Shown: positions 6,110 through 64,000 of the stretch, one piece after another
Numbering within the stretch: the stretch's first letter is position 1
How the letters are laid out: each line of letters starts with the position of its first letter
Source: Callorhinchus milii
Lineage: Eukaryota
Length of the DNA stretch: 64,000 bases
Assembly (NCBI RefSeq): GCF_018977255.1
Contig: NW_024704742.1
Location: 64,358,001 to 64,422,000, forward strand
Direction: 5' to 3'
Notes under the pieces: generated by a model
What the model was told of the DNA's origin: nothing
What the model saw: only the letters and a program-made list of their open reading frames with translations
Databases searched by the model: none
Made by a program: the position numbers and the translations under genes

Positions 6110-8714
6110 ATCTAAGGGATTGACTTCAGGAAATTGCCCCATTTTGAACTGAGCCCCAGGATTCTGATCTGACTACGAGCTGTTCGAACAGAGTTCTTTC
6201 TGCTAACAGCATGGAGGAAATCTAGATCAGCCACAGTCCTGCCCAAGTCTAAGCAAGAGATGAATGTCTCACACCACATTGCTAAACAAGGTAATGCCCT
6301 GCTAAACAAGGTAATAGCTGAGATGCAGCTATGGGCAGCAGAATTCTTGCCTGTAGAAAATTAATTAAAAAGCTACTTTAAGAAAATCTCACTATGTAAA
6401 ACATTCAAAACAAACCTTCAGGATATTAAAAATTCAACACAAGTATCTCAAAACGAGTCTACCTGTACAGTAATAAATATCAGTAATAAATATTAATTCC
6501 TCATCATAAACCTAATTCTTTAATCTTCCATGTATAAAGATTGACTACATCTGCGTTCTAGGCGCTTTTTATTACTTAATAAGAATATATTTTTATTCTT
6601 ATTTTTGTGCGAGTTTTGCCCACAAAATATACAGTCAATTCACTTTTCCGTGTATTCTATGAAGCGCTTTAAGATGTCTCAAATACATGATAAGACGCTA
6701 TATCAAATCCAAGGATTATTATTATTATTAATTGTGCATTGTTCATCTGCCCCCTGCTGACCAGGGAGGCAAGAAAACACTACATAGGAAGCATCATTGT
6801 ACAAGTCTGTTAGAGCTGAACCTCATATCTAGCAGCTTTTTCAATTCAGCAGACAAAGGCTTGGCGAATGTGAAATGATCAACTTAAATCTCTAATCTAT
6901 CTTTAGTCACCATTAAAAGCTTAAATATGACTTTAAAAGAAGTAGTTAGGTGTTGGGTTCACAAAGTGACAATAAACCTTACTCCCTAACTGCTGGTTCC
7001 CAACGAGGCACAGATTAGTCCCTATTGATATGACATTGCAAGAGAGGGCAACAGAACCATTACACATTAAGATTACAGCAGTAAACCTGAACCAGAAATG
7101 AGGTTGAATAATATATAAATAAATACAATATAAATACACATAACAATAATTAATCCAAGGGGGGGTGGGGGGGGGAAATCTTTCCGTCAAAGCTCCTCTT
7201 GCAGTTTTTTTGTTCTTTTCTTGAATTTCCTTTTGGTTTATAATTGTGAACGATTTGTCACAAATGTCAAAAAGACATCTGTGCTTTCTATTGAATCGGC
7301 AGGACTTACTGGTAAAAGAAATAGACCTTAAGACCCTGATAGGCAGTAACTGGTATAAATAACTGTGCAATAATGCAAACATGTTTTGAACTGAATTTTA
7401 AACCTTAAAAAAAAGCACAGTTAACTTCTCAAAATTGCTAAACTTGCGCTACAACTGACTATATATTGCATTGCAAAATAAGGCATTCTCTTACACAAAA
7501 TAATGTGTAAATTGTTGTCTGAATTTAAGAACAGTAACTAAAAATACGGAAGATGATTTGTTGTACTTATTGGGATCAGCTCACTGGTGATTTTAGCATC
7601 ACCATAAGTAACATTCGGCATTGATATTGCAACCAAATCTAAGATAAAAAATTAAACTGCCCGAATTTCTAAAAAAAAAGTCAAGCTCTATGCAAGTTGG
7701 AGGAAGAACAATATACATTAAACTGAAAAACGATTTACATAACTATAGTTGTAATGTGAAACAAGTGGCATTCTGGGCTGCTTAACAGAAGATGAAGCCT
7801 TGGCTCTTGCCCACCTGCACCAAATGCTTTCCGGAATTAGGCAAACAGGATGTGTCCCTCCAGGGGGAGAGAGCGCGTTCCATTCCAACACTCTATCCCT
7901 GGGATTTCCATGTGTAGGTGGGATGCAGGGAAATCTCAGTTTGGTTTGGAGATCTTAAGCATGGGGATGGGTTTCTGCAGGTGTCAAGACACCCGGCTGA
8001 CCACAAACAAATAACAGAAGATGACTCTTCCCAGTCTTACTTCCAGAGCTATTAAAAATCCATCAGCAGCTGAACGGCAGTGCAGGAGTGTGGCAGCACC
8101 ACAGCTGACAGCGAACACTCCATTAACAGAACACCTCAACATCAGAAGAGAATTGAGTCGGTTCCCCAGCACCAGTTACACATCTGGGACTCTGAATTCA
8201 GTGCTGTGCCTGTCAAAACCCTGACGTGCTCCCTTACATGATGTGCCAAGCTCAGCGAGAGTGCTGGCCACAGGGAGAAAAGGCAGAGGATGGCAGAGAT
8301 CCACTGTGCTCTGCTATATTGGTGACTCTGCAGATTTCCATCTCACTCCACTGATGTGGATTTTTGACCCATGGCCCCCAGAGACAAAAAGAAACAGACT
8401 ACAGTCTGCGTCTCCTGTCCCTAGCCATCACATCACCCTAGTTGCTGACGTTGAATGACCTAAACGGCAGCTTGAAGATTGAGTATTGTAAAGACTTAAT
8501 ATATTCATTGCAGTCAATATGCTGCACAAAATACATTGCTCTGAATAGTCCATTGTAGTGGAGAGAGAGCACTGTACTCAAAAAGCAACATCAGAATGGT
8601 AGTTGGACAGCCACCTGCCCTCAGTATCGACACCCATTCTGACCCTGGGTAATCTTAAGTACTGAATGAATGAAAGAAAACAAAGCGGTCTCTATATCTG
8701 GCAACATCGCTGGA

Positions 8715-30556: not shown

Positions 30557-31893
30557 ACATCAAATATAAGGATTATTATTATTGATGATGATGATAATAA
30601 TAATCCTTCCATTTAATATAGTGCCTTTTACATCACAAGGCTGCTCGAAAGTGCTTACCTGTAAAGTGCAGTGACTGTGTGTTTTATGGGCAAATGACCA
30701 TTAAGTGAAAGACCAATTTCATATCTGGGGGATTATTGGATAGGGCTCCAAGAGAAACCCCCTTCTCTTTTTGATATAGTACCATAAGATCTGAAACATC
30801 CACCTGAACAGCCAGTTTAACAACTCATGCCAAGGATGGCATCTCAGACAAAGTAGTGCTCCCCCATTGGAGTGTCAATCTAGTCTGTGAGCTTAAAGTC
30901 CTGACGTGGGGCTTGAACCCAGAGTTCTCACAGATAAATTGTCAACATCTGCAACTTCTGCTTCCATTTCCCCCTATAGTTTGGGAGGATTATTATTTCC
31001 CAGCCAGTTTGACAGGTCCTTTCACACTACCGTCTTCATCTAGCCTCAATACTCCAACAAGACATCCAAGTCAATTGAACTCTATCAATTGCAACTCTGA
31101 AGTAGGCTCCAGGAGCACAAATGTTGAAATTGCCCTCACATTGAATCTGTTATGAAATGTCACAAATTTAACCCCCCGCACCCCACCCAACGATTATAAT
31201 AGATTATGTATATGAATGATCTGTTACAGTGCTTCAATTCTCTATTACCCTAACAGCAAATGTGGTCTCTTTTGCTGACTTTATTCATTAAATGTACTGT
31301 TATTTCTGAAAGGCTTGGCAACGTTCCTGCATATAAAGGCAGGCCCCCAGGCTGGAAGGAATAGTTTCACTTTTTGTGGAATCAGCCTAGCCATTGGAAA
31401 TTGTTGAAGATTTAGTGGTCTGAAATTCCTGTCAGTGTGATGATACAATATGATGCAAATTTACATTTGTGTAGTGCCATCAGGACTATCACAATGAGCA
31501 ATTATAATGGAGGAAAATTTCTGTTAGAGAGCTGACACCATCCATGTCCTACTCTTATTGAATATTCCTCAAGAATTTCAGGCCACAGAAGTCTCAGTCC
31601 TAGCCTGTAAAGGACATTTCTCCTTAAAATTTATAGTTATTCAGAATTGTGCAAACTTTTTTAAAAAGAAGCCGGTTTGATTTGGAAGTCGGTCCTTTTC
31701 GAAATCTGCGGAAAAACCCCTTCCAAATTAGGACTGAACTGAAGAATCTTTCCAGAATTCTACAGCATCTTAAGTTTTATGACAAGAAAATCTGAACCAG
31801 CTGGTCTCACGGCTCATAACCTGCGGAAACATTTGAGCCACAGACGATACAGAGCGAGTAGATCAAAGGGTTAAAGAGTGGGTTGGGGCTTAC

Positions 31894-32705
31894 CCTTAAG
31901 CCCCCGCAGATGGGGCAGGCGGTGAAGAGGGCGTGCGGGCTGCATACATCACACGTTTCCGTCGATCCCGCTCCAACAGGCAAAGCCACGTTGCTCCCTA
32001 TTTGTCCCTGTGGCTTCGGAAGTGACCAACGGGGCACGTAATCCAGGCACGGCTCATCAGACGAGTCTCTAGCACCTTCCTTCCCCTTGGCCTGACTCTC
32101 TGGGCTCAATAACTTGGGGTCACCAATATCCTGAGGAGCCGGAATCTGGTCCTTTAACGTGGAGGAAACTGGAGCCTTGGCTGTTGCTTCCTTACCAGCT
32201 GCCTGTAACACACTCCGCGGCGTGTCGTATAGATGCCTGGCAGAACTGGGAACCTGATACTCAGAACCAGTAGTCCTCAGCGTCTCGCTGTGCTGGCACG
32301 TGCACAAGCCCTGCTCTGGAGGCAAGTTCAATGGGAGGCTAAACACTGACCCGTACTCGTCAGCAGGGCCAATGTCCAGGCTCCCGGTGTAGGAAGAGAA
32401 GCTTCCGGAATATGACGAGTGGCTAGCCGTGGCAATGCCACTGTCGGAAGAGCTCTGGCGGCCCACTTCCTGTAGCTTCCGTGACCGAGGCGGCTTTAGT
32501 GGGGCTTTCGATCCCCGCATGACCTCCGCGTATAATCGTTCCTCTGCTGGATTCAGTCCCTTGGCAGCTGGTGGTGTGTGACCCTCTGGGAGGCTGCTCC
32601 CCGACAGCTGCTCAGGCCATATCGTCAGTCGGCTTCCAATACTCGCTGAATCCGACTGGCTGGTGTCTGAAGACTCGGTTGAGCTGGACAGGCTTCTGTC
32701 ATCTC
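31894..32705 (-). CDS. DOK7: DOK7 exon 7 (GDDRSLSSS...YQVP...YDTP...CPICGGLR). Read-through to TGA at 31807 gives a short isoform of about 552 aa
   Basis: cctag|GA acceptor. Contains RQSSSDSGIAT, the Crk-type YQVP and YDTP motifs and CPICGG, with an internal donor AGG|gtaagc at 31894/31893. Confidence 0.95.
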
Positions 32706-35700
32706 CTAGGGAGACAAGCACAAAGATCCACCCGAGTGCTCTAGAGAACACAACCTTCAACAAAACAGCATTCAATTCACGACAAAGCAAATTATCACCC
32801 AGAATGTGAACCCAGGAATGTAGGAATTGCTAGACGAAGAAAGACCAAGGTTCATCTAGTTCGCCTTCTACCATCCTGGTAGTCGCATGCTACAATAATG
32901 TGGATTATTGTGGATAGCAGTTAATTCTGCATGGATTAGTCTACAAAGGTTGTTGACTCAGTCCTGCACACTCCAAATACAGAAAAAACTCACATAAGTT
33001 GTGTCAGTCGGGACCATAACATTTAATGGTACATACCAAATTCCGAGTTGCAAGCAAACTATATAAGTCATATAAAATCTGATTTAATTAACAATCTTGG
33101 TCTTTCTTCGTCTACGTTACGTAACTTAATGCATCGGTATATGCGCATGCGATAGTCAAGATTACATTTCCCGCAATTCAGAGCTTCTTGACCCATCACC
33201 ATATGCACATTTGCTGGAAAACATTGGAATCGGATTAAATCACGGGAAATGAAGTTCTTCTGCACAAAGGTTGACGGATCAAGACTACATTTCCCGTGAT
33301 TCAATACAGCTGGCCAGAAAGTCCGCATGTGTCGATGGGTTAGGATGTAATTTCCTGTGTTTGAATACAACGGTAAGTATGGGAGTAATGGGTGGTGTGA
33401 GATTGGTGAGCTAGAAGGTGTTTAATACGAGTCATGCAAAGAAATCTATATGGTTTTGATAGGAAACTGCATGGGACTCACGTGGATGTATGACTTAGGT
33501 GATTATACGATTTATAAAGATTAGACAAATTAAGTTTTACTGTATTTCACAAGTTGTATTTAAAGTATTTGCACTAATATATAGCCTGTGTTGGGTATGT
33601 CAGCGACTATTCGGTATTTTGCGTACGTTCCTGGGTGAGCTCCCGGATATAACTTTAACCACTTAGCACAAACACAGCTTCACCCATATGCACATAACTT
33701 CCCACTCGAGTAAGGAGTCAGGCAGCCCAGCAATGCAGTGGTTTGGCGGTTTGCTTTGTGGGTTTGGGTTACAGGTGCTGAATCATCAGGAATGTCTGGC
33801 TCGCATGTCCGACAGCAATAAGAGGGAATGAACTACAGCACAGTTGAAACGCCAAGTTTCCTGACGCTGCTCAGATTAAACCATTGATTTTCGTAACATG
33901 GGCATGCCCCATCCTCCTCTCACACACACACACACACACTCCATCGCACTGTGAAGTGTAGTGACTGTGTTTTTGTTGGCAAACGCAATAGCCAAATTAT
34001 AATAATAATAATCCTTGTATATGATACAATGCCTTATCACGTTATTGAGAAATCTCAAAGAACTTCACAAAATATACTGTAATGTGGATTGATTATGTAT
34101 TTTGTTTGAGAAGCTCGTCAGTAAATTGCACACAGCAGTGTCCCACAAACAATTGTGGATTGCGTGACCAATTTTTTAGGGGATTATTATCCCCGGAAAG
34201 CTATCCGCCAATTGATAACAACCGGGTTCTTACTTACTGCTAGGTAAACAGAAGTGTGCGGAGTAAGGAAACTTGCCTAAGGTTTCACCCCACCTGGGAA
34301 TCGAACCCAGGTCTCTTGCTTGCAAAGCAAGCGCACTTATCACTATCCTATGGGACTTCACTGCAAATTGCACTCAACAACGTCCAACAGGAACATCAGA
34401 GTCAGTTCAAAGTCACAGATGACTCTCACTGAACTCTTGACTCAGAATGGGGAAGGAGAGGGGCAGTGTGGGCCGTGTGGGCAGTGTGGGCAGCGTGGGT
34501 CCACTTGGATTCAAATCCAGACGCCTCTGGTCCATGTCCGTAACGGTAAGTAAACAGTTAAACATCTGGATGGCCTCCAAAATCAGCAGAGAATGACAAA
34601 TGTAAATCCTTTTAATTTGCCAACTGTATAACGTGCAGAGATCCCTTAGAGACACAATTCCCGCGCCTAGAATGCAAAGCAGTTATTAACGCTACTGTAA
34701 AAGGTGAAACTCTGGAGTTGAGCTGGCTTTCAGCCACATTTTATACACTTGCAAATTGGAAGCCAGCACCTTTACTTTTAGAGACATTTAATGCAGCATT
34801 GAGGGGTCGGGCTCCAGGCAGTGATAATGAGCATTACTGCACCAGTTACATTTCCCCCCAAAGCAACCAGGTCTAACTCACTGATTCATAATTGCTAAAT
34901 CCCAGCCAAAATGTTATCAGAGAGCAGTGGGAAGATTCTCGGTTTGTTGGTGTGCCCAACCCACAGTCCATTAGAAAAGCTCTTAATATATTGGACCACT
35001 GCAAAAACAGGTCAACACAGCTATGGTTCTACCTGGGATAGAGAGACATTCTGAAAGAAAAGGTGGGAGTTCTTATATAATAGTAATAAACCTGGCATTT
35101 GATATAGCGCCTTATTACATCTTTGAGACGCTTCAAAGCACTTCACAGAATATTCTGTAAAGTGAATTTTGTGAGTGAAACATGGCAACCAATTGCGCAC
35201 AGCAGTGTCCCAAAATCAGTCTTGGATTGAGTGACCACATTTTTTTTCAATTTTGAAGGTATTATTACCCTCGGAAAAGTGATCCGACAATCGACTAACA
35301 ACCAGGTTCCTACTTACTGCTTGGTAAACAGAGAAGTGTGGAGTAAGGAAACATTTCACCCTGCCCAGGAATCGAACCCAGGTCCTCTCAGTTGTGAGGT
35401 GAGTGCTCTAACTAATAAGCTCCAGGACTCTTAATGTTGTCAAAAGGGAACCTTGGTTTGGACACTTTGTAGCAAATGTCAGGCTATCTCATCACAAGCC
35501 ATTCTTTATCTTAAGTATTCCACTGAGGGGAAGTACAAAGCAGGCCATCAACACATTATTGTGCATCTTTTTCTGCTAGCAACTGAGTGCCTCAATTCCT
35601 ACCCAAGGAATTACAAATGGACATTACTCAATTAATTCATTACTCAGTTCCTGGTACAGATTTGGATATTTGTAAAACAACTGTATGCCAGAAATTCCAC

Positions 35701-41538: not shown

Positions 41539-42629
41539 CTGTCATAAAAACAGAAAGCAGCTTGTTATTCAGGCAGCCTGAAAAGCACTTCAAAATCCTA
41601 ATGATCACGTAACAGTAGCACAGCTCAATGTGCTGAGTGTAACACCAGTAGAGTGAATAATTTGAAACAAAGTTCAAATATACTTGCGTCAGGTTACTTC
41701 CCTGTTACTTTTGGAACTGGAACTCAAGACAGAAACACAGAGTTAAAATGATGTTGCGCTGAGCAATGACTTCTGTTTGTTGGAGCTGTAAAGTGATCTG
41801 TAAAAAACAGCTCCCACACGCATTAAATCCAGACGTCTCTGGGTAAGATGCTTAAACAGGGTTTCACAGTGAGCCTGTGCTGCTATATTCACCCACAAAA
41901 CATCCAGGACTGCATTTTATTGCGTGTCCTGTGAAGCGCTTTGGGATGTCCTCCTGATGTGAAAGGGGCTACACCAAATGTAAGGATTACAACAACAACA
42001 AATTACATTTGTATAGCGCCTTTCATGATGGGAGGATGTTCCAAGGCGCTAGAGAAGTCAAATTTGGATCCGAGCAGGGGGTTGGCATCAGGAGGGGTGG
42101 AGGGCAGGGAGACTAGGGGTAGGAGAGTGACCGAAAGTGCAGTCTAAGAACAGGTGTTGAGAGGGGTTTGAAGGAGGCAAGGGAGGGAGCGAGGAGGAGG
42201 GACTGTGGGATGGAGTTCCAAAGGGTGGGAGCAGTGAGGTGATTATATAAAATACATATATTTATATACATTACATGTTTACAGGGAATTATTAATCACT
42301 GGGTTAACTAGAATTCAGCAGTCTTATTCTCAATGAGCATCTTTCAAAATTGGAATTGGAAAGATTTGGTCAGTGTAGGTGCAGCTGGCAGCACACTGAG
42401 TCAGAAGGTTGTGGGTTCCAGCCCCCACATTGGAAATATTTCTTCCAATCTTCATTTGCTTTCCTACAAAACTGGGTTCAGCATTAGCCACCCATATACT
42501 CTCAGATCCTAAGACTGTAATGTCCCTGCTCCAACGGCTTTAACCCTGTTCACCCTGTAAGTAAGTACTCGGAACTTGAAGAATACATGGAATGTGTTTC
42601 CGCAATTCCAAGCATCTGTTTCCAGCTGA

Positions 42630-43170
42630 AGGGCAGGGCTGTGAGGATAAGCCGGTGAGAGCAGGCCGGTGGGGGGAGGGTGTTGGGGGCAGGGTGATGG
42701 GGGCAGGGCTGTGGGGGCAGGGTGGTGGGGGCAGGGCGGTGGGAGCAGGGCGGTGGGGGCAGGGCGGTGGGGGCAGGGCATTGGGGGCAGGGCGGTGGGG
42801 GCAGGGCGGTGGGGGCAGGGCGGTGGGGGCAGGGCGGTGGGGGCAGGGCGGTGGGTGCAGGATGGTGGGGGCAGGCCTGTGGGGGCAGGGCTGTGGGGGC
42901 AAGGTGGTGGGGGCAGGGCTGTGGGTGCAAGATGGTGGGGGCAGGGCTGTGGGTGCAGGATGGTGGGAGCAGGCCTGTGGGGGCAGGGCTGTGGGGGCAG
43001 GGCTGTGGGGGCAAGGTGGTGGGGGCAGGGTAGTGGGTGCAGGGCGGTGGGGGCAGGGATGTAGGAGCAGGGTAGTGGGGGCAGGGCTGTGAGAGCAGGA
43101 CGGTGGGCGCAGGGTGGTGGGGGTAGGGCGGTGATGTAGGGGCAAGGCTGTAGGGTAAGCCGGTTGGGGT
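42630..43170. repeat. G-rich minisatellite, about 15-bp unit GGGGCAGGGC(G/T)GTGG
   Basis: Tandem units are directly visible. The 15-bp period explains the six overlapping Pro/Gly-rich ORFs. Confidence 0.95.
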
Positions 43171-44324
43171 AGGGCCATAGGCATCGCCATAGGTAATAAA
43201 TGTCATTTTACCATTCAGGGTATTTTGTAACATATAAACTGATGGGGAAAATCCCCACCAGCCCCTAGGATTTCCTCCACAGTCATTTCGAAATTCCCCA
43301 CCAGTAACTTGCACTTCCATAATAATAATAATAATAATAATAAAGGTAATGGTGATTTTGTCAGCAGTCACCATTTAGGCAGGAATTACGGAATTTTAGG
43401 CAAATTTTACATAATATTATTTGATACACTATATGATTATTATTTCAATCATCCTAAGGTTTGAAACAAAATACATGAAGCATCGCTGCATCTGTAGCAA
43501 TCTGTTTTCAATGCTTTTGAATGTGGGATAAAAGTGCCCCTTTGAGTTCAGTCCCCACCAGTGACAATTCCTTAAAACATGCTCTGTTACCATTAATGAT
43601 CATTGGTTTAGCAAAGGGAAGCAGTGGCAGCTTTTCTGCACTCAGCAACTTCAGTAAAATCCAAGGTGGAACGAAAATAGTCATTGAGAGGACAAATAGC
43701 TAGCTGTATTAATAAGTGCTGTATTAATAATAAATCCTTGCATTTGATACAGCGCCTATAACATCAAAATGTCTCAAAGTGCTCCACAAGGAATTGCTGC
43801 AAAGTGAGGTGGCTGCGTATTTGTGGGTGAATGCAGCTGCCAATCTGTAGACTGCAATATTCCGCAAACAGCCATGAAGTGAATGAGCAACGTTTTGGAA
43901 GATGGTTAGCAGGGACACCAGGAAAAATTCTCTTCCTTTTTGAATAGTGTCATGAGATCTTTAACCCACAGCACTATTCCAAAAGGGAAGAGAATTTTAT
44001 ATCTACCTGAACAGGCAGAAGGCCTCTTAGCTTAACATGTCATTAAAGGCAGGTGCCTCCAACAATGCAGCAATAAACAATAATAATAACCTTGTATTGA
44101 AGGCTTATTATGTTGTTGAGACATCTCAAAGTGCTTCACAGAATATACTGTAAAGTGGGTTGACTATATTTTGTGGGCAAAACTGTACTCTGTGACCTAA
44201 AATTCCCAATATGGAACTCGAACCAACAACTTTCCAATTTAGAGCCATGCAGATAGCTTTCATGCAAGAGTAATAGAAATAATAGCTTTGCATTATTTAT
44301 GTGGCATCATTCATATGAAATATA

Positions 44325-44501: not shown

Positions 44502-46594
44502 TACGTCTTAAAGTCAACTTTTAAGGTACATGGCAACAGCATGTCGAAATAGACAAGATAGTGATTTTCAACTTAAAAGTCTTAAAACCATATTATAACT
44601 ATACATGAGTTGCAAAGATTACGATTACTAAGTAGTTGAAATTAAGAGTATTATTATATCATAAGGGACTGGCTTGTTTGTAGTGGGTTAGAGAGGGAGG
44701 ATGGGGCAGGACTGTGGTGGGGTGGGGGGCTGCGCGGAGAGGGAGTCAACACAAGGACGTGGATCTGAAATAGAAAAATAAAATCATCAGATCACAAGAT
44801 AAGTTTGGATGAAGAAGACCCTTCAGGCCATTTGATCTCATCCTTCCAGAACACTCATCCTGCCATCTTCCATCACAGCATCAAGCACCAGTGCCCTGAC
44901 CTCAACCACCCTCGCTGGCAATCTGTTCCAGTCATTGAATGCCAAACTCCAAAATAATGACACTGATCCAACACGCACAGGTCAAGAGGTTATTTTGAGC
45001 TTAAGATAAACAAGCAAATTTGATCTCTTTAAAGTGCCAGTCCTTTGATGTCAGCTTTGATCCTTTCATCTGACTGTTTACAGACCTACAATTAGCAGCT
45101 ATTTCATAAAACTATAATCAAAACAATTCTGTTTTCACACGCCTCTTTATGTAGGACAGGTTTTACTCCTGGGCACAGATGAAGAAAATACACAAAATAC
45201 AGAGTCAATTCACTTTACAGTATATTCTGTGAAGCACTTTGAGACGTCTCAATGACGTGATAAGGCGCTATATCAAGGATTATTATTATTAAGAAGAAAG
45301 CTTCATGACAGTCAATGACTTTGAGATGAAAACAAAGTCATTTGAAGCTTTGTGACTGCCGCTGATAAATGTGGGAAATTAAATTGACCCCAGTGATAAT
45401 TATTTCCAGTGCTTTTCGTCTAGTGTTTAATGAGTGTTTGGGAGCAAACAACCTTTCTGCCCTCCCCCACTGAAATTTCAGTGTTGCTGACTGGGCTATT
45501 GCAGAACGGATCGATTTAAGGATCCTCACACTTCACAATTCACTTCAATTCCAGCGTCTCCCTGCACATCCCTCGTGCCCTCCGCTCCACCATCAGTGGA
45601 CGTGCATTCAGCAACTGTGCCCGAAACTATAGCACTCGCTGCCTCAATTCTTTTCTCCTACCCCCCCCCTTGCGAGTCTTCAGATCACACCTGAAAACCT
45701 ACTCTTCAACTGTGCCTATGGTCACTTCTCTGGCTCGACGTCAAGATCCACCACCATGAAGTGCTCCGAGACTCTACCCCAAATGATGGGTGCTATATAA
45801 CAAGCTGTTGTTGTTTAGAGGTGGTCCTAGTGAAGAGGGCAAATATTTTCCAAATATTCGAAACAGGACGACCAGTGACCAAAATCATAGTAGGATGCAG
45901 CTCTACCACAATATTTTCAATAGGATTGTTCTGAAGAGTCTGGCAATGGAGCCATCCGACAGAATCTTCAATCCAAAGCTAATTCTTCAAAAGAAGAACC
46001 TTTGATCAAGCCAAGAGATTTAGATACTAACATTTCTGGCTTGCCAAAAATAATTCTCTTATTTTAGAACAACACTAGTACCCCATCTCTAAACAACAAG
46101 AAAAATAATTCTCTCATTTTAGAACTGCTAAGTAAACAGGCAAGTTTCCTTACTCCACACACCTCTGTTTACCTATCAGAAAGTAGGACCCCAGTTGTTA
46201 ATCGATTGGCAGACCGTTTTTCTGAGGATAATAATCCCTTTAAAAAAATAAATAAAATGTAATAATAATTTTGTCACTCAATCCACAACTGTTTGTGGGA
46301 CACTGCTGTGTGCAATTGGCTGCCTGGTTTTGCCCACAATATACACAGTCAATTCACTTTACAATATATTCTGTGAAACGCTTTGAGATGTCTCAAACGA
46401 CGTGATAAGGAGTTATATTAAATGCAAGGATTGTTATCATTATATTGTTATAGAACAAGCCAGGAATTCCAAGTGAAAGCTTTGAAAGCTTTCAAAAGAG
46501 ACAAGTTGATTCTGAATAGTTTGGTCACCTTCAATTGTTTGACTGACTGTAGATGTTCAGCTGCGTGATATTGTAATACATTCCAGGTACTTAC

Positions 46595-46795
46595 AAGGAC
46601 CGCACCGGGAACCTCCTTCAAAAACAAAGCCATTGGGAATAGCTCCATAGCGTCTCATGTCTGAGAGCTTCCACTGCCCGATGATTGTTGGCGGAACATC
46701 TCGCACCAGCACAAAGATATTGTTACAGAAGTGAAGAGTAGCAGGTCCACATTCCAACTTGGTGCCGGGTAACACCGTCACGTTAAATCTGTGAA
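46595..46795 (-). CDS. DOK7: DOK7 exon 4 (VHRFNVTVLPGTKLECGP...FEGGSRCGP), IRS-type PTB domain
   Basis: 201 nt, tccag|TT...CCTT|gtaagt; contains the WKLSDMRRYG PTB motif. Confidence 0.97.
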
Positions 46796-47028
46796 CTGGA
46801 AAAACAACGTAACACTAAGGTCATGATTGCTGACTCTAAAACAGTTAAAACAACTAATAAATACATATTGCAAATTACAAATAATTAATAATCCATGTAT
46901 TTCACATCAGGAGAACATCTCAAAGTGCTTCACATGAAAAGTGCAATACAAAATGCAAGGATTTTTATTACTTTTATTATTATAAACACCTCTCAAAGGG
47001 TTACAGTCGAAACCAAATTAGAAGTTAC

Positions 47029-57995: not shown

Positions 57996-58178
57996 TTATC
58001 TTTCTTGGAGAGGATCCACCTTTTTGCCGAAGATTGTATTGCGGATCCAGTCCAGGTAAACGGAAACATCTGTGTATATTTGAGGAAGGTTTGATCTACA
58101 GTCTGTTCCCCAGCTGATAATTCCTATCACAAATGGAGTTTTCTTCCTGTAACAAACCAGTGGTCCTCCAATGTCTAC
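57996..58178 (-). CDS. HGFAC: HGFAC-like last exon (VDIGGPLVCYRKKTPFVIGIISWGTDCRSNLPQIYTDVSVYLDWIRNTIFGKKVDPLQER*), catalytic Ser replaced by Ile
   Basis: 183 nt, gtgtag|GTA, open to TAA; contains GGPLVC, GIISWG, YT.V and DWI trypsin motifs. Translated by hand. Confidence 0.92.
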   Translation of the reverse strand, partial: VDIGGPLVCYRKKTPFVIGIISWGTDCRSNLPQIYTDVSVYLDWIRNTIFGKKVDPLQER

Positions 58179-58589
58179 CTACACAGATACAAAAACAACA
58201 ACAATAAAAACAAATTACATTTGTATAGCGCCTTTCACATCGGGAGAACACCCTAAGGCACTGGACAGCAGGGATTTGGATCCGAGCAGGAGGTTGAGAT
58301 CAGGAGGGGTTGAAGACAGGGAGGGTAGAGGTAGGAGGGTGACCGAAGGCGCGGTCGAAGAGGAGGGTCTTGAGATGGACCTTGATGGAGGCAAGGGAGG
58401 GAACAAGGCGAAGGGACTGTGAGATGGAGTCAACCCAAGGAAAGATTTTCAGGATCTTAATGCAACAGAATACTTCTGAAACACAACAAAGTGGTGCTCG
58501 ACAGGCAAGCAATAACTTTACTGGTGTCTGGCCACCACAACATTTTGTTTTCTGTAGTGATTCTCCAGTGCTTAATTCTTAATACTCTT

Positions 58590-58810
58590 AGAATTACGCA
58601 GCACAGAAGGAGGCCGTTCGGCCCATCGTGTCCGTGCCGGATCTTTGAAAGTGCTATCCAAATTAATCCCACTTCCCCGCTCTCTCCCCATAGCCCTGCT
58701 GTCCTCCTAAAGTATCTACCTACTTCTCTCTTGAAAGTTGTTATCGAATCGTCTTGCACCACCCTTTCAGGCAATGCATTCCAGATCCAAACAACTTGCT
58801 GTGTGAAAAT
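58590..58810 (-). mobile_element. CR1 3'UTR fragment; related copies at about 10737-10878(+), 14740-14940(-), 16180-16445(+), 23740-23950(+)
   Basis: Matches the 3' end of the CR1 at 30310-30556 (gatgggccgaa.ggcctccttctgtg). Confidence 0.75.
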
Positions 58811-59345
58811 AATGACTTGTGAGACCTCAGATCTCCCCAGAGTTGAGACTTTGTAAATCAGCCTGACATGCAGAGGATTTCCTGTAGAAAACAGCTCTGT
58901 TTATTCCAGAGGTTTCCAGTAATACAACTCCTGAGGAAAGACCTTTTTTTCAATTATAAGCAACTGCGCAGTGAAAAGATGCTACTGTGGGAGACCATGT
59001 TATAACAGATCAGGCTTTGGTGTTGAAACAGTTCATACTAATGTTATAATAATAATAATCGTTGCATTTGATATAGCCCCTTATCACGTCGTTCAGACAT
59101 CTCAAAGGGAAGTGAATTGACTGTATATTTTGTGGGCAAAACGCACAATTACGCACACCAGTGTCCCACAAACAGTCGTGGATTGACATATTTTATCAAT
59201 TATTACCCCTGGAAAGCGATCGCCAATCGACTAACAACCAGGTTCCTACTTCCTGCGAGGTAAACAGAGTCATGTGGAATAAGGAAACTTGCCAAACCAA
59301 TCAGGTATACAGTAAGATACAGATCTGATGACTCCCAGCCGTCAC

Positions 59346-59497
59346 TCTAGTGCTATAACAGATCACAATCTAGTGTTATAACAGATCACAATCTAGTGTT
59401 ATAACAGATCACAATCTAGTGTTATAACAGATCACAATCTAGTGTTATAACAGATCACAATCTAGTGTTATAACAGATCACAATCTAGTGTTATAAC
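59346..59497. repeat. Tandem repeat, 23-bp unit TCTAGTGTTATAACAGATCACAA, about 6.5 copies
   Basis: Near-perfect head-to-tail copies with no spacers. Confidence 0.95.
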
Positions 59498-59580
59498 GAG
59501 TCTCTTTATTTAAAAAGCACAAAAGGCATAATTTCTCTGAATGTGTTGATAGCTTTCATAAGGCTACACAGTGTCCGTAC

Positions 59581-59720
59581 CTGGCAAGCATCAGTGACTC
59601 CCTTTAAATTTCCAGCGCACATCATTCCCAATTTTACATGATTGGGATAGGCTTCTATGCACTTCTCGTTTGAGATGAGGGTAACATTGCCATGTGAAAG
59701 CGATGAATACACATTTGAGC
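59581..59720 (-). CDS. HGFAC: HGFAC-like exon (GSNVYSSLSHGNVTLISNEKCIEAYPNHVKLGMMCAGNLKGVTDACQ)
   Basis: 140 nt, ttccag|GC...CAG|gtacgg, phase 1 to 0; contains MMCAG and DACQ (Asp189). Confidence 0.92.
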
Positions 59721-61296
59721 CTGGAAAATGGAGGCAAGAAAATACAAATGGAATGTGGTATAAATGATGTTCTGTTCAAAATCATAAAATATGTTAGTAA
59801 GCTGTCCTTTCATCTCTGGGATCTTCGTTTAATAATAATAATCTTGGTTGAGACATCTCAAAGTGCTTCACTAGATTTTACTGAAAATGTATTTGAATGT
59901 ACTTTGTAGACAATTGCATCATTCATTTTGACCATACCAAAACGTCCCACAAACATCCATGAAGGGAATGACCAATTTTATCTGAGGGATTTGTTGGCCA
60001 TGATACAGGGAGAAACTCCCTCCCTTTTGATGTAGTGCCATGGGAACGTTCTCCTGAACAGGCAGATGGGATCTCAGATTAACGTCTCATCTGAAGGACA
60101 GCACTTCTAACAATGCAGCGCTGCCCCAACACTGCATTGCAGCGTCAGCTCTGTTCAAAGACCCAACATAAAGGTTGAATACACAACCTTCTCACTCACT
60201 AAAAGTGAGGCTGACGATGGTGATGTGGAGGGGTGAGAGACCCTTGCTTTGCACAAAGTATCTCCTGCATTTCCTTACAAAAAAATACCATTACACGTGC
60301 CAGTAATTACTGAAAAACACTTTGAGGACAATACGATCAGGCATTGTAAAAATGATGCTGCAGGTGAAAATTCTGGTTAATCTGAAGGAGAATTATATGA
60401 GTCCAGTCTAGACTTTGGAACATCCTGTTCACTGGATTCCCCAGTTCCTCCCTACAAAAGCTGCAAATTATCTAGAATTCTGCAGCTCATATCCCCTCCG
60501 GCAAAAGGCTCAGAGAGCCTATCACACCCATCCTCGCTCAGTTCCAATGTCTCCCCATTCCCCAGCGGATCAAATTCAAGATCCTTGTCTTTGTGCTCAA
60601 ATCCCTCCATAGCTTGACACTAGTCTCCTGTGACCCCACCAACCCATCCGCTTCCTCTGCTCAACAAACTGCCTGCTTCTTGTCACCCGCCCAATGGACT
60701 CCACCACAATAATAATAATGCTTGCATCATGTCTTCAAGACGTCTCAAAGTACTTTACAGAATATATTGTAAAGTGAATTGATTGTATATTTTGTGGGCG
60801 AAACACCGTAGCCAATTGTGTGACCAAATTAATATTATTGTTTTAAGGGATTATTACACCCAGAAAAGCAATCCGCCAATCAGCTAACAACCGGGTTCCT
60901 ACTTACTGCTAGGTAAAAAGAGGCGTGTGGAGTAAGGAAACTTGCCTAAGATTTCGCCCTGCCCGAGAACCGAACCCAGGTCCTCTCGCTTGCGAGGCAA
61001 GTGCAGTAACCAATACACTATAGAACTTCCCAAATGAGCAAGCTTTCAGCCATTCAGTCCAGTCTCGGTAGAACTCCATCCTGGAGGCCCTCCTCCTCCT
61101 CCTCACATTTAGAACCTTTTCTTTTGGCCACACATTTGATCATCTTTTCCCACCACCCACTCACCTTCCTCAGTTCTCTCCACCCCCAGCTTGGGCTAAC
61201 AATCATCTCTTTGAGATGTCCTCCTGAAAGGCACTGCATAAATGTAAAATTATTTTGCATTGTTGTTGAGTAATGCAGTTGTTTTATTTCTCTTAC

Positions 61297-61437
61297 CATT
61301 GACCCGAGAGCCCCACACAGCAACTTTGCACACTTCACCTTCAAAGAAAGGTTTATTTTTAGCCACTAAACGTACAGTCTTTACAAAGTGTGATTTGGTT
61401 GCACAGCTGCCATTATTTTTCTGCAGCCTAATGAGAC
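61297..61437 (-). CDS. HGFAC: HGFAC-like exon (GLIRLQKNNGSCATKSHFVKTVRLVAKNKPFFEGEVCKVAVWGSRVN)
   Basis: 141 nt, ttccag|GT...AATG|gtaaga, phase 1 to 1. The LIRL....CAT.S.FV pattern is typical of the HGFAC/F12/plasminogen-activator group. Confidence 0.9.
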
Positions 61438-61533
61438 CTGGAACAAAGAAGGAATTTTGGTTAGAATGTGAAAATAAAGCAATGCTTCAAGGGAAATAGT
61501 TGAATTCTATTTAGGGAAGGCGAACATTTTTAC

Positions 61534-61673
61534 CTATATCATATTCCTTCCCGTTATTTGGGTTATGTAGGGGATACAACGTGTATGATTTTACTCCAAA
61601 CTCCTGCATGACCTCACTTGGCTCATTTATATAATGTTGACCCAACACAACTTTGATCATCTCTTTTGTTGGC
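61534..61673 (-). CDS. HGFAC: HGFAC-like exon with Asp102 (PTKEMIKVVLGQHYINEPSEVMQEFGVKSYTLYPLHNPNNGKEYDI)
   Basis: 140 nt, ttttcag|G...ATAG|gtaaaa, phase 2 to 1; the VVLGQH and FG..Y pattern is as in HGFAC. Confidence 0.9.
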
Positions 61674-62790
61674 CTGAAAACACAACAACAAAAAGGACTT
61701 CTAGATTCTGCAAACATCTATACAATTACAATTTAGAGTGCTTTTCATGTCAGGAGGACGTCTTGAAGCCCTTGGCAGTGCTGGCTGGACATGTGAGCCA
61801 TGGGGGATGGGGAGGGGAAAGATGACATAGGAACAGGAGTAGGCCATTCAGCTCCTTGAGCCTGTTCTGCCATTCTATTAGATCATGGCTGACCAAAAGC
61901 TCAATCACAGAGGTATGGACCTTGAGATGGGGAAAGAGGGGAGAACGTCCACCTCAGTCTAGCTTAATTTTCTAATTTCCTCCCCATTGATATGACTCCC
62001 TGCATTCCTGGTCCTCAGCCTCCTCTTGTTAGGTGGGGTTCCAGAGGCACTGCTTGTCCTCTGATACCTCACTCAAGTAACCATTGTTTCTGTGTAAGCC
62101 TTGGCAGTGATTGTCCACAGTCTATTTAACTGACATTGGTCACAGACACGCAATAACCCTCCCTCCCCATCAGACACACAATCAGTAGAGGGTGCTCTAG
62201 ATAATAATAATTATAATAATAATCCTTCCATCTGATATAGCGCCTAATCACGTTGTTGAGACGTATCAAAGCACTTCACAGAATATACTGTAAAGTGAAT
62301 TGACTGTATATTTTAAGGGTGAAACCGAGCAGCCAATTGCTCACAGCAGTGTCCCACAAACAGTCGTGGATTTTTGGGGGAAGGATTATTATTCCTGGAA
62401 AGTGATCCACCAAACAACTAACAACCAGGTTTTGTACTTACTGCTAGGTAAACAGAAGCATATGAAGTAAGGAAATTTACTTTAATAATTTATTACTTTA
62501 ATAATAATCATTTTATTTATTAAATAATTTAATAACAATAATAAATTGGTCATTTTCAATCTACGACTGTTTGTGGGACATTGCTGTGCGCAATTGGCTG
62601 CCGCGTTCGCCCACAAGTATACAGTCAATTCGCTTTACAGTGTTTTCTGTGAAGCGCTTTGGGACGTCCTCCCGACGTGAAAAGCGTTATATCAAATGCA
62701 AGGATTATTATTATTATGAACTTACTTTAGTAATTCATTACTTTAATAATAATAATTTGAAGCACTGCTTGATGCTGGTCATATACATAC

Positions 62791-63013
62791 ATTGAATGGA
62801 AGCAATGGGCAACAGTGAGCACCCAGCAAGGCTGGATAAGAATTCCAACGCAGAAAATATCCCCGTGATATATTGCTGCTAACGAGGGGAAGAAGCCAGA
62901 CAAGTCCTCTGACTCTGAAATAATACCCTGACGATTATTTGGTAGTGGTTTTTCATTTCTTCTCCATTTTGAAAGCAGTTGCAAAGGTCTTTCATTATTT
63001 GTGTCGAATAATG
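62791..63013 (-). CDS. HGFAC: HGFAC-like gene: linker, activation region and His57 exon (...RQGIISESEDLSGFFPSLAAIYHGDIFCVGILIQPCWVLTVAHCFHS)
   Basis: 223 nt, cttcag|CA...CAAT|gtatgt, phase 1 to 2. LAAIYxGDxFC is HGFAC-like. Upstream exons presumably lie beyond the window. The symbol means 'HGFAC-like'. Confidence 0.85.
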
Positions 63014-63660
63014 CTGAAGCACAACAGAAAAATGTAGTTATCTTGAGATAAAACTGAACTTAATAATAAGAATAATCCTTACATTTAATATAGAGCCTTA
63101 TCACGTCTTCAAGACGTCTCAAAGCTCTTCACAGAATGTACTGTAAAATGAAATGATTGTGGGAAACTTGGCAGTCAATTTTTTGCGCAGCAATGTCCCA
63201 CAAACATTAGAAGATTGTGTGACCAAATGTTTTTTTTAAAAGGGATTATTACCCTCAGAAAAGCGATCTGCCAATCGAATAACAACCGGGTTCCTACTTA
63301 CTGCTAGGTAAACAAAGGCATGTGGAGTAAGGAAACTTACACCTAACAATTCGCCCAGCCCGGGAATCAAACTTTTTTTGATGGTAACATAATTTTCCCA
63401 ACTTCACACATTGCATTGAAAATACTGAATATTTGGTATTTGCTTTTGGCTGCTGTACAAAGTTTCTATTTGCTTCATGTCTTACAGTTCTGAATTGTAT
63501 GTTTACATATTTTCAAAGCAACTTTACTAAAAAAAACTTTGTTAAATAAACTAATGTTTAATGGTCATTCTCGACTAACGTTGTCCATCTTACATCTGAG
63601 ACTAACTTCATTTTTTACTGCTGGAATCTTCTGGTTAAGTTAACTCCAGTTAAGTTAACT

Positions 63661-63980
63661 GGAGTCCTGTAGTTCAGTGGTTAGAGCACTCGCCTTGCAA
63701 GCAAGACACCTGGGTTCAATTCCAGGCAGAGCGAAACCTTGGGCAAGTTTCCTTACTCCACACAGAGCCTAATAATAATCCCTCCAAAAACAAAAAACAA
63801 TAATAAATTGGTCACTTTCAATCCACGACTGTTTGTGGGACACTGCTGTGCGAAATTGACTGCCACGTTTCGCCCACAAATATATGTTCAATTCACTTTA
63901 CAGCATATTCTGTAAAGCGCTTTGAGACGTCCTCCCGACGTGAAAAGCGCTATATCAAATGCAAGGATTATAATTATAAT
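63661..63980 (+). mobile_element. tRNA-derived Deu-domain SINE, short variant
   Basis: Closely matches the copy at 47359-47680. Confidence 0.88.
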
Positions 63981-64000
63981 CTAGAAGACGTGAAAAGCGC

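Follow-up and report, generated by a model that had tools for sequence, protein, structure and literature searches.

The elephant shark Callorhinchus milii appears to have a single ortholog of HGFAC, and the sequence of its protease domain predicts a protein that can neither be activated nor catalyze proteolysis. We think it probable that this is a maintained pseudo-protease which arose on the chimaera lineage. The elephant shark is a reference genome for early jawed vertebrates, and no dead HGFAC ortholog was described in the literature that we searched. The 3' end of the gene lies in a stretch of 64,000 nucleotides (the window), to which the positions below refer.

The protease domain and its active site

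The protease domain is encoded by five exons (Table 1). All five have AG acceptors, the first four have GT donors, and the spliced exons give 274 codons with no stop ahead of the TAA at 57996–57998 (minus strand), which confirms the open five-exon frame of the original prediction. The Pfam family Trypsin (PF00089) matches residues 404–628 of the protein P0155 (E = 5.1e-45; 154 bits, with a cut-off of 20.6). Exon 5 matches the UniRef protein A0A4W3JGP7 and XP_042198043.1 at their C-termini with 100% identity. We found no alternative last exon or second protease domain in 124 kb: 4 of 20 tblastn HSPs were significant, and all of these were known exons.

Table 1. Features of the protease exons and the neighboring DOK7 exon, in window coordinates. 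Arrows mark the activation cleavage position.
Feature	Position	Strand	Observation or basis
Protease exon 1	63013–62791	minus	Linker without cysteine, activation site NNRQG↓IISE, FC...AHC with His57
Protease exon 2	61673–61534	minus	VVLGQH motif; Asp102 at 61538–61540; HGFAC is the best solved-structure match
Protease exon 3	61437–61297	minus	Cys111 and Cys136 kept; Arg at the Cys122 position
Protease exon 4	59720–59581	minus	Carries Cys168, Cys182, Asp189, Cys191
Protease exon 5 and stop codon	58178–57996	minus	V193-D194-I195-GGP, SWG, Cys201, Cys220, Gln226
His57 kept	CAT 62805–62807	minus	Codon read from DNA
Asp102 kept (YDI)	GAT 61538–61540	minus	Codon read from DNA
Asp189 kept (DACQ)	GAT 59590–59592	minus	Codon read from DNA
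Gly193 (oxyanion hole) to Val	GTA 58176–58178	minus	HMMER alignment to human HGFAC
Ser195 to Ile	ATT 58170–58172	minus	HMMER alignment to human HGFAC; RNA contigs agree
Gly226 (S1 pocket wall) to Gln	CAA 58080–58082	minus	HMMER alignment to human HGFAC
Activation site R-Q-G-I-I-S-E (HGFAC: R-P-R↓I-I-G-G)	62913–62933	minus	Alignment to human HGFAC 1ybw
Cys122 to Arg	CGT 61370–61372	minus	Exon 3
DOK7 exon (PTB domain) in open frame	46560–46814	minus	phmmer against human Dok-7 3ml4, E = 2.4e-36

In the spliced frame, the diagnostic motifs read VAHC, YDI, DACQ, VDIGGP, and LPQIYT. Aligned to human HGFAC with HMMER, Val193, Ile195, and Gln226 face the G, S, and G of QGDSGGP and KPGVYT. The original prediction had named these three replacements along with the retention of His57, Asp102, and Asp189; the codons bear out all six, and the ATT of Ile195 is exactly where it had been placed. 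Gln226 would fill the S1 pocket, of which Gly216 is retained. By our own list of 25 universally conserved S1 positions, 22 are kept, and the missing ones are Gly193, Ser195, and Gly226.

The machinery of activation is altered as well. The P1 Arg of the activation site is now Gly, and Gly18 and Gly19 are now Ser and Glu. Because the linker has no cysteine at all and Cys122 is replaced, the interchain disulfide Cys1–Cys122 is missing on both sides. In contrast, the five intradomain disulfides keep their full set of 10 cysteines. (The changes to the activation site, Cys122, and the linker go beyond those noticed originally.) An active S1 protease would have Ser195 of the triad, Gly193 and Gly226, an Arg15↓Ile16-x-Gly-Gly site, and the Cys1–Cys122 link; this domain has none of these, and its catalytic apparatus is predicted to be dead.

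Identity and architecture of the gene

Among solved structures, which are all that the ranking covers, the protease domain is most similar to HGFAC (198 bits), followed by factor XII (175–179), bat plasminogen activator (131), uPA (125), and tPA (120). Exons 1–3 each match HGFAC first among these structures, and the whole domain is ~43% identical to human HGFAC (hand count). Factor XII (8os5) is matched by the N-terminal part of the protein, FN2-EGF-FN1-EGF. The neighbor downstream, on this strand too, is DOK7; the human gene order is likewise HGFAC-DOK7. The Pfam IRS match of the DOK7 exon is weak (19.8 bits, with a cut-off of 22), and this exon was not among the matches listed in a genome-wide search with the IRS profile. 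The HGFAC/F12 domain set upstream, the closest structure, and the DOK7 neighbor agree with the HGFAC-type gene originally proposed, and by these features the gene is predicted to be the HGFAC ortholog.

Searches for homologous proteins found only a 106-amino-acid UniRef fragment of the same gene with exon 5 as the query; 0 of 20 candidates passed with exon 1 and 0 of 4 with the first kringle-B exon. In a search of representative proteins, the matches listed (150 of 19,294) were mostly multi-protease proteins; by blastp, 149 of them are at most 36% identical to the spliced domain, and no HGFAC ortholog was among them.

The protease exons are the 3' end of a gene with at least 17 exons that extends ~33 kb past the window. 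The original prediction had pointed to possible kringle, EGF, and FN exons beyond position 64000, and we found them: a doubled EGF-FN1-EGF-kringle module plus FN2. Pfam matches on the upstream exons and on P0155, together with the spliced gene model, give the domain order FN2-EGF-FN1-EGF-kringle-EGF-FN1-EGF-kringle-protease. From FN2a to the stop codon, the 17 exons form an open frame of 749 codons over ~33 kb, with no stop or frameshift, with canonical splice dinucleotides (33/33; AG acceptors and GT donors), and with all of the domain cysteines present. Paralogous exons of the two modules are equal in length (114/132/111/175/95 nt). In this model, the kringle-A donor and the second EGF exon form a phase 1 junction whose sequence agrees with the shark protein.

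RefSeq already has a protein from this gene, XP_042198043.1, under the name "hepatocyte growth factor activator-like". It covers both modules but lacks the fourth EGF and the greater part of kringle A, although these exons are intact; sloppy splicing could account for this. Its N-terminus, MNKTFVCLLQ, sits directly before FN2. Scans for a signal-peptide exon gave just repeat-derived or unconvincing candidates. We rejected a poly-Leu "start" at ~103.3 kb, which is a TTA microsatellite.

Maintenance, decay, and copy number

Of the sequencing runs marked "RNA?", two show a spliced joint. Contigs from X1 and X3, which are from two studies, join exon 4 to exon 5 at the predicted intron; a contig from X2 begins at the same place and probably has this joint too. 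Among the contig rows listed, which are crowded with repeats, this is the only joint seen directly; these rows include none between exons 1 and 2, 2 and 3, or 3 and 4, or between kringle B and exon 1. One X1 contig can be aligned as far as 63013, beyond which it has 27 unplaced letters; this fits use of the exon 1 acceptor. Contigs from X1 (record 2) and X3 (record 17) span the ATT codon of Ile195 with no other letters. The RNA contigs are of low depth (3–7). The gene is transcribed and is spliced correctly at exons 4–5, and the ATT codon of the original prediction stands up in RNA. Contigs from the DNA run X6 have no listed difference from the assembly in any of the five protease exons. All 11 X6 variants lie outside the exons, which is uninformative given an expectation of just ~1 exonic variant.

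How long has the protease been dead? Of 14 residues involved in catalysis or activation, 8 are replaced, which would correspond to ~0.4 substitutions per site (0.16–0.78) under the assumption of neutral and independent loss at 14 sites that we picked ourselves. We also simulated substitutions in this coding sequence. The probability that no stop codon arises is 0.49 at 0.02 substitutions per site, 0.019 at 0.12, 0.0038 at 0.2, and 0.0002 at 0.3. With ~0.4 substitutions at the critical sites, the remainder of the frame is unlikely to have been neutral for that long. The pattern of loss also looks selective, as the intradomain cysteines are all kept and the interchain pair is gone on both sides. 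These observations suggest that selection has kept the gene as a non-catalytic multidomain protein.

The main alternative, which we consider rather unlikely, is that the gene is a unitary pseudogene, still transcribed but slowly decaying. HGFAC would then be dispensable in chimaeras, its protease domain would be eroding, and the frame would be open only because the genome evolves slowly. There are other activators of pro-HGF besides HGFAC, and we take the elephant shark genome to be slow-evolving. The many changes that hit function-critical positions of the protease, the lack of a recognizable signal peptide, the intact exons left out of the RefSeq isoform, and the low RNA contig depth all fit decay, and at a neutral distance as small as 0.02 the frame could be open by chance. 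Also, HGFAC is absent from the seven Callorhinchus ortholog rows of a 2019 survey (PMC6337849, supplement 2). By hand counts, the N-terminal modules are better conserved (45–55% identity to Squalus) than the protease domain (~41%); this is the reverse of the usual order and fits relaxed constraint equally well. On the other hand, inactivation long enough to change so many critical sites should have broken an unconstrained frame, and this one is intact over all 17 exons, with just three in-frame indels relative to Squalus (hand alignment). Neither the selective retention of cysteines nor the correct splicing of exons 4–5 is what decay would predict.

It is far less probable that the gene is a dead decoy duplicate and that an active HGFAC sits next to it or at another place in the genome. 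The original prediction had allowed for either a tandem duplicate or the only copy of HGFAC. At first sight, the second kringle, EGF, and FN1 set, 10–27 kb upstream on the same strand, resembles a tandem copy. But we found no protease exons belonging to this set within the 124 kb searched, and its splicing to the downstream set is in phase. This internal doubling within one gene is the published architecture of shark HGFAC (PMC6337849). Nor did we find a second copy in the C. milii assembly (1762 contigs), using searches that score the best candidates only, which fits the only-copy alternative. Protease exon 1 matched only itself among 19 candidates, as did protease exon 2 (1/1). The best non-self match of the first kringle-B exon was the uPA gene (44%), and the second FN1 had no further match below E = 0.4. 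The closest kringle elsewhere (C7:10338043) was rejected as a second HGFAC: it belongs to the uPA gene, with GDSGGP. Genome searches with the FN2 and FN1 profiles listed only whole-domain matches elsewhere and only the fibronectin gene, respectively; they are uninformative about a second copy because split or weak HGFAC-type domains, including those of this gene, score below threshold.

Finally, we can practically discount an error in sequencing or assembly, or a null allele private to the reference animal. The window is from a single assembly, but nothing specific points to an artefact. The inactivating changes are numerous and spread across four exons, and the RefSeq and UniRef proteins have the same residues. 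The exon sequences are also borne out by contigs from RNA (two studies) and DNA (a third study); at a nearby position in the 3' UTR (C>A at 57858) these contigs differ from the assembly, so they are not simply from the same haplotype.

Proposed function and comparison with known systems

We propose that C. milii has a single HGFAC ortholog, which keeps the doubled chondrichthyan architecture. On the chimaera (holocephalan) lineage, its protease domain would have lost its nucleophile, oxyanion-hole glycine, and open S1 pocket, as well as the Arg-Ile cleavage site and both of the cysteines that tie the chains together after cleavage. Given these losses, the product would be permanently single-chain and zymogen-like, and unable to cleave pro-HGF or pro-MSP. 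The function most likely resides in the intact FN2/EGF/FN1/kringle array, and the protease-like domain would serve as a folded module for binding or for structure, as it does in HGF, MSP, and haptoglobin. The product may be secreted and may have a binding role. The decoy role originally suggested, for pro-HGF or HAI-1, looks unlikely as far as the active-site cleft is concerned; without an activation cleavage site, the S1 pocket and the oxyanion hole should stay unformed, and Gln226 would occupy the pocket. More tentatively, chimaeras may long ago have turned their only HGFAC into a retained, permanently single-chain, non-catalytic protein of plasma or matrix, in which the dead protease domain and the doubled FN/EGF/kringle array together gained a binding role, and HGF and MSP activation may be entirely HGFA-free.

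If the gene is maintained, it would be a natural separation of the non-catalytic domains of HGFAC from its enzymatic function, and would put a date on one conversion of a protease to a pseudo-enzyme. A long-retained protein with its own binding role would repeat, in a recent and datable form, the step that produced HGF and MSP from plasminogen-like proteases. If the gene is instead decaying, then an entire vertebrate lineage can dispense with HGFA-dependent activation of HGF, as birds reportedly can with factor XII (PMC6337849). In either case, the RefSeq label masks a protein that is predicted to be incapable of acting as the activator.

The closest comparison is to elasmobranchs. HGFAC from Scyliorhinus canicula and Squalus acanthias has a doubled EGF-FN1-EGF-kringle before one canonical S1 domain (Chana-Munoz et al. 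2019, PMC6337849). C. milii shares this doubled module, its junction sequences, and its cysteine patterns, with ~41–55% identity by domain (hand counts). The doubled architecture now extends from elasmobranchs to holocephalans, so the internal duplication would predate their split. The motifs of the two sharks are RPR↓IVGG or RPR↓VIGG, SAAHC, CLP, DACQGDSGGP, and PGVYT (PMC6337849, supplement 7). In other words, the sharks keep Arg↓Ile/Val-x-Gly-Gly, the linker Cys, Cys122, GDSGGP, and PGVYT, and C. milii has none of these. Also, the N-terminus of shark HGFAC is 55 residues long and includes a clear signal peptide (PMC6337849), whereas we found no such N-terminus in C. milii. The same survey reports canonical HGFAC domain forms from teleosts onwards (PMC6337849). 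As HGFAC is catalytically canonical in both of the sharks read and in human, its inactivation appears to be lineage-specific.

Human HGFAC (1ybw, 2r0l, and 2wub) is the best match for the protease domain, but it has one module instead of two, and the C. milii domain is predicted to be dead and non-activatable in comparison. Factor XII is the second-best match for the protease and resembles the N-terminal region.

HGF, MSP/MST1, haptoglobin, protein Z, and azurocidin are non-catalytic S1 homologs. Like the C. milii domain, they keep the trypsin fold and its disulfides and have replacements in the triad or the oxyanion hole. For instance, shark HGF and MSP read ERDYGGP at the GDSGGP motif (PMC6337849). 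These are old, conserved families with known partners, whereas the C. milii protein seems to be a lineage-specific conversion with no known partner. HGF and MSP still act only once they have been cut at an Arg-Val site; in contrast, the cleavage site of C. milii HGFAC is gone.

A single gene with a doubled module

The original prediction raised the question of whether kringle, EGF, and FN exons lie beyond base 64000. They do, and they join the protease exons in one 17-exon frame. A genome-wide kringle search (71 matches among 81 candidates) found two half-kringles on the same strand, 1.4 and 17 kb past the end of the window. We scanned the upstream minus strand for open frames of at least 25 amino acids with at least two cysteines; 258 of 481 frames passed, and at least four frames that span locus borders fell outside the scan. 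Pfam was run on 135 and then 105 of the upstream frames (the second batch took 29 of the 40 frames in locus L012). From 5' to 3', the domains are FN2, EGF, FN1, kringle (two halves), EGF, FN1, EGF, and kringle (two halves), with several half-domains scoring under the Pfam cutoffs. The fourth EGF, which we identified by reading the translation, spans the border between loci L010 and L011.

From FN2 to the stop codon, the model has 17 exons with AG/GT sites throughout (picked by phase), 749 open codons, and 56 cysteines. The twelve upstream exons encode FN2 (two exons) and then, twice, an EGF, FN1, EGF, and two-exon kringle; we refer to these repeats as modules A and B. Paralogous exons have equal lengths (114, 132, 111, 175, and 95 nt). 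The modules align over 199 residues with no gap and are 37% identical; the doubling is therefore old.

A tandem duplicate had been suggested, but the upstream set is the other module of one gene: it splices in phase, has a shark-like junction, and lacks protease exons. When we compared the spliced protease domain to 124 kb with tblastn, the only significant HSPs (4 of 20) were the known exons, and the other 16 had E ≥ 0.29. So, within these 124 kb, no second protease domain follows the first kringle and there is no alternative last exon. The single 749-codon frame and a RefSeq model that covers both modules speak for one gene and not two.

That model, XP_042198043.1 ("hepatocyte growth factor activator-like", 643 amino acids), ends with exactly the same five protease exons, and Pfam finds fn2, EGF (3 stretches), fn1, Kringle, and Trypsin in it. 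It uses an inner donor right after the first cysteine of kringle A, leaving out the rest of that kringle, and it also leaves out the fourth EGF exon. The omitted exons are open, with a full cysteine set and AG/GT sites. The first coding exon continues straight into FN2, and its hydrophobic stretch is short. Scans upstream of FN2 found no signal peptide, nothing better than the RefSeq start, and nothing that corresponds to the shark N-terminus of about 55 residues with its signal peptide. Both this entry and a UniRef fragment carry the species name Callorhinchus milii.

Locations of features. The window corresponds to G000:C1:64358001-64422000. Positions are in window numbering unless a contig (C1 or C7 of the assembly, G000) or locus is named; loci L009, L010, and L011 start at 64001, 74001, and 84001 when this numbering is continued past 64000 (ext).
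Feature	Location	Strand	Remarks
Open frame	31810-32829	minus	340 aa; no Pfam match
Segment with strong GC skew	42001-44000		50% G+C; skew +0.33
Open frames	42512-43374	minus	220-274 aa in all three frames; no Pfam match
DOK7 exon	46560-46814	minus	same strand as HGFAC-like gene; E 2.4e-36 to 3ml4
Protease exon 5	58178-57996	minus	AG acceptor; ends in TAA
Gly226 position	58080-58082	minus	CAA, Gln
Ser195 position	58170-58172	minus	ATT, Ile
Gly193 position	58176-58178	minus	GTA, Val
23-bp tandem repeat	59346-59497		6.6 copies, 99% matching; intron between protease exons 4 and 5
Protease exon 4	59720-59581	minus	AG acceptor, GT donor
Protease exon 3	61437-61297	minus	AG acceptor, GT donor
Protease exon 2	61673-61534	minus	AG acceptor, GT donor
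Protease exon 1	63013-62791	minus	AG acceptor, GT donor
Interspersed repeat family	59046-59290, 60726-60943, 62210-62717, 63063-63338, 63793-63980	both	at least 6 copies; introns of HGFAC-like gene
Twelve upstream exons	C1:64423394-64448813 (L011:4949-6813, L010:7207-10000, L009:1394-9368)	minus	same gene; beyond window
RefSeq first coding exon	L011 about 7050-7090 (ext about 91.05-91.09 kb)	minus	MNKTFVCLLQ
uPA gene	C7:10334500-10339863 (L016:4500-9863)	minus	FN1-like exon, EGF, kringle, active GDSGGP protease domain
Three exon-5-like protease matches and two tandem kringle sets	C7:26584449-26623168	plus	40 kb

Against solved structures, the protease domain is most similar to human HGFAC (198 bits), followed by factor XII (175-179), bat plasminogen activator (131), uPA (125), and tPA (120). 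The N-terminal part matches the FnII-EGF-FnI-EGF fragment of factor XII. Taken singly, protease exons 1, 2, and 3 each have HGFAC as their top match, while the last two have factor XII. An HGFAC-type gene beside DOK7 had been predicted; the best structure match and the DOK7 exon on the same strand agree with this. In human, HGFAC lies immediately upstream of DOK7. Also near the DOK7 exon, the 340-aa open frame could be a large last exon of DOK7, and the GC-skewed segment may belong to DOK7 or represent low-complexity repeat sequence.

Exon-by-exon searches of the assembly (1762 contigs) found no second HGFAC among the top-scoring candidates, which fits the suggestion that this is the only copy. 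Protease exons 1 (1 match among 19 candidates) and 2 (1 of 1) matched only themselves, and the second FN1 had no further match below E 0.4. Exon 5 had 40 matches, and its best paralogues, at 53-56% identity, are at the level expected of any S1 paralogue. The first kringle-B exon had 5 matches among 17 candidates; the best non-self match (44%) is the uPA gene and was rejected as a second HGFAC. Bar a few residues, this uPA matches the uPA-like Callorhinchus protein given in the supplement of PMC6337849. The 40-kb region of C7 looks like a kringle-protease gene cluster, possibly the HABP2-like genes of that paper.

Active site and read support

The five protease exons splice to 274 codons ending in TAA. 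As predicted, VAHC, YDI, and DACQ are present, and the altered motifs read Q-V-D-I-G-G-P and L-P-Q-I-Y-T; in the HMMER alignment, Gly193, Ser195, and Gly226 of human HGFAC face Val, Ile, and Gln. Three changes add to the original list. The activation site is R-Q-G|I-I-S-E instead of the R-P-R|I-I-G-G of HGFAC, Cys122 is replaced by Arg, and the 29-residue linker ahead of the activation site has no cysteine. The interchain disulfide has thus lost both of its cysteines. All 10 cysteines of the five intradomain disulfides are retained.

We aligned three runs marked "RNA?" (X1 and X2 from one study, X3 from another; none is formally recorded as RNA) and a DNA run (X6) to locus L015, whose position p is window position p + 57800. 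Contigs from X1 (record 2) and from X3 (record 17) connect L015 375 with 1778, which is the predicted intron between exons 5 and 4 (379-1780), allowing three shared letters. They show no other letters over L015 294/304-375, a stretch that contains the ATT codon (370-372). Expression and the ATT codon both find support in these contigs. A contig from X2 (record 8) begins at the same acceptor-side position and has 39 further letters unplaced, and one from X1 (record 5) aligns at L015 5063-5213 and breaks off right at the acceptor of exon 1, leaving 27 letters unplaced. Contig depth is low (3-7), and among the joints listed, that of exons 4 and 5 is the only one seen directly. X6 contigs cover exon 4, exons 3 and 2, and exon 1 without differences in the exons, and exon 5 has no listed difference. 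At window 57858 (L015:58) in the 3'UTR, X1, X3, and X6 all differ from the assembly by C>A. This is probably a common SNP, and it means that these runs are not merely the assembly's haplotype. Over the intron repeats, contigs pile up to a summed depth above 100,000 and swamp the joint and loose-end tables.

Comparison with sharks

In elasmobranch HGFAC, the numbers of EGF, FN1, and kringle domains are double those of the mammalian protein (Chana-Munoz et al. 2019, PMC6337849). Supplement 7 of that paper gives proteins from Scyliorhinus and Squalus, and supplement 2 has seven Callorhinchus milii orthologues, without HGFAC. The inter-module junction of the sharks (…P-D-P-C-L-S-x-P-C-K-N…) matches our splice model (…M-Y-D-P-C-Y-Y-Q-P-C-K-N…). 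Both printed shark proteins have RPR|IVGG or RPR|VIGG, SAAHC, HDIVLL, the linker Cys, CLP, DACQGDSGGP, and PGVYT. Judging by these sequences, the change of active site and activation site is lineage-specific.

We counted identities to Squalus by hand from the printed text, so they may err by a few: 98/238 (41%) for the protease domain, 17/38 (45%) for the third EGF, 40/83 (48%) for kringle A, 21/43 (49%) for the second FN1, 19/38 (50%) for the fourth EGF, and 46/84 (55%) for kringle B. The protease domain is therefore no longer the best conserved part. By hand alignment, it has three in-frame indels relative to Squalus (1, 2, and 1 residues), and it is about 43% identical to human HGFAC (about 102/239, also a hand count). 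Of the 43 residues that open the mature domain, Squalus shares 34 with human and the elephant shark shares 24. The elephant shark branch is thus accelerated.

Maintained or decaying

We lean towards the view that this is a transcribed HGFAC-like gene kept as a non-catalytic protein. Of 14 positions that serve activation or catalysis alone, 8 carry a different residue (Arg15, Gly18, Gly19, the linker Cys, Cys122, Gly193, Ser195, and Gly226) and 6 are kept (Ile16, His57, Asp102, Asp189, Asp194, and Gly216). Under free drift this would equal about 0.4 substitutions per site, a clock that assumes neutrality and depends on which sites we picked. We simulated stop codons on this coding sequence, leaving indels and splice sites outside the count. 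The probability that 274 codons stay free of stops was 0.49 at 0.02 substitutions per site, 0.16 at 0.05, 0.019 at 0.12, 0.0038 at 0.2, and 0.0002 at 0.3. These values argue for a frame kept open well beyond the loss of catalysis.

A transcribed unitary pseudogene would account for the low apparent expression, the failure of our scans to find a signal peptide, the stop four codons before the RefSeq start, and a RefSeq model that lacks the fourth EGF and most of kringle A though the exons are intact. The long open frame, canonical splice sites, and in-frame indels speak for maintenance. Also, fold residues are retained while exactly the catalytic and activation residues are lost, and the interchain cysteines were lost as a pair. 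We consider a pseudogene less likely.

Without an Arg-Ile site, the Ile16-Asp194 salt bridge could not form, and the domain would stay zymogen-like. Ile195 would provide no nucleophile, Val193 would upset the oxyanion hole, and Gln226 would occupy the S1 pocket. Such a domain would be unlikely to cleave pro-HGF or pro-MSP or to bind Kunitz inhibitors such as HAI-1 in a substrate-like way. As in HGF, MSP, and haptoglobin, any function should reside in the FN2/EGF/FN1/kringle array and on the surfaces of the folded protease-like domain.

RefSeq already annotates the gene, and the doubled architecture has been described in sharks (PMC6337849). In the literature searched, including passages of PMC9643190, we found no account of the inactivated catalytic site, of the loss of the activation site, or of the doubled form in a holocephalan. 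Pseudo-proteases of the S1 fold are a known kind, with HGF, MSP, and haptoglobin among them.
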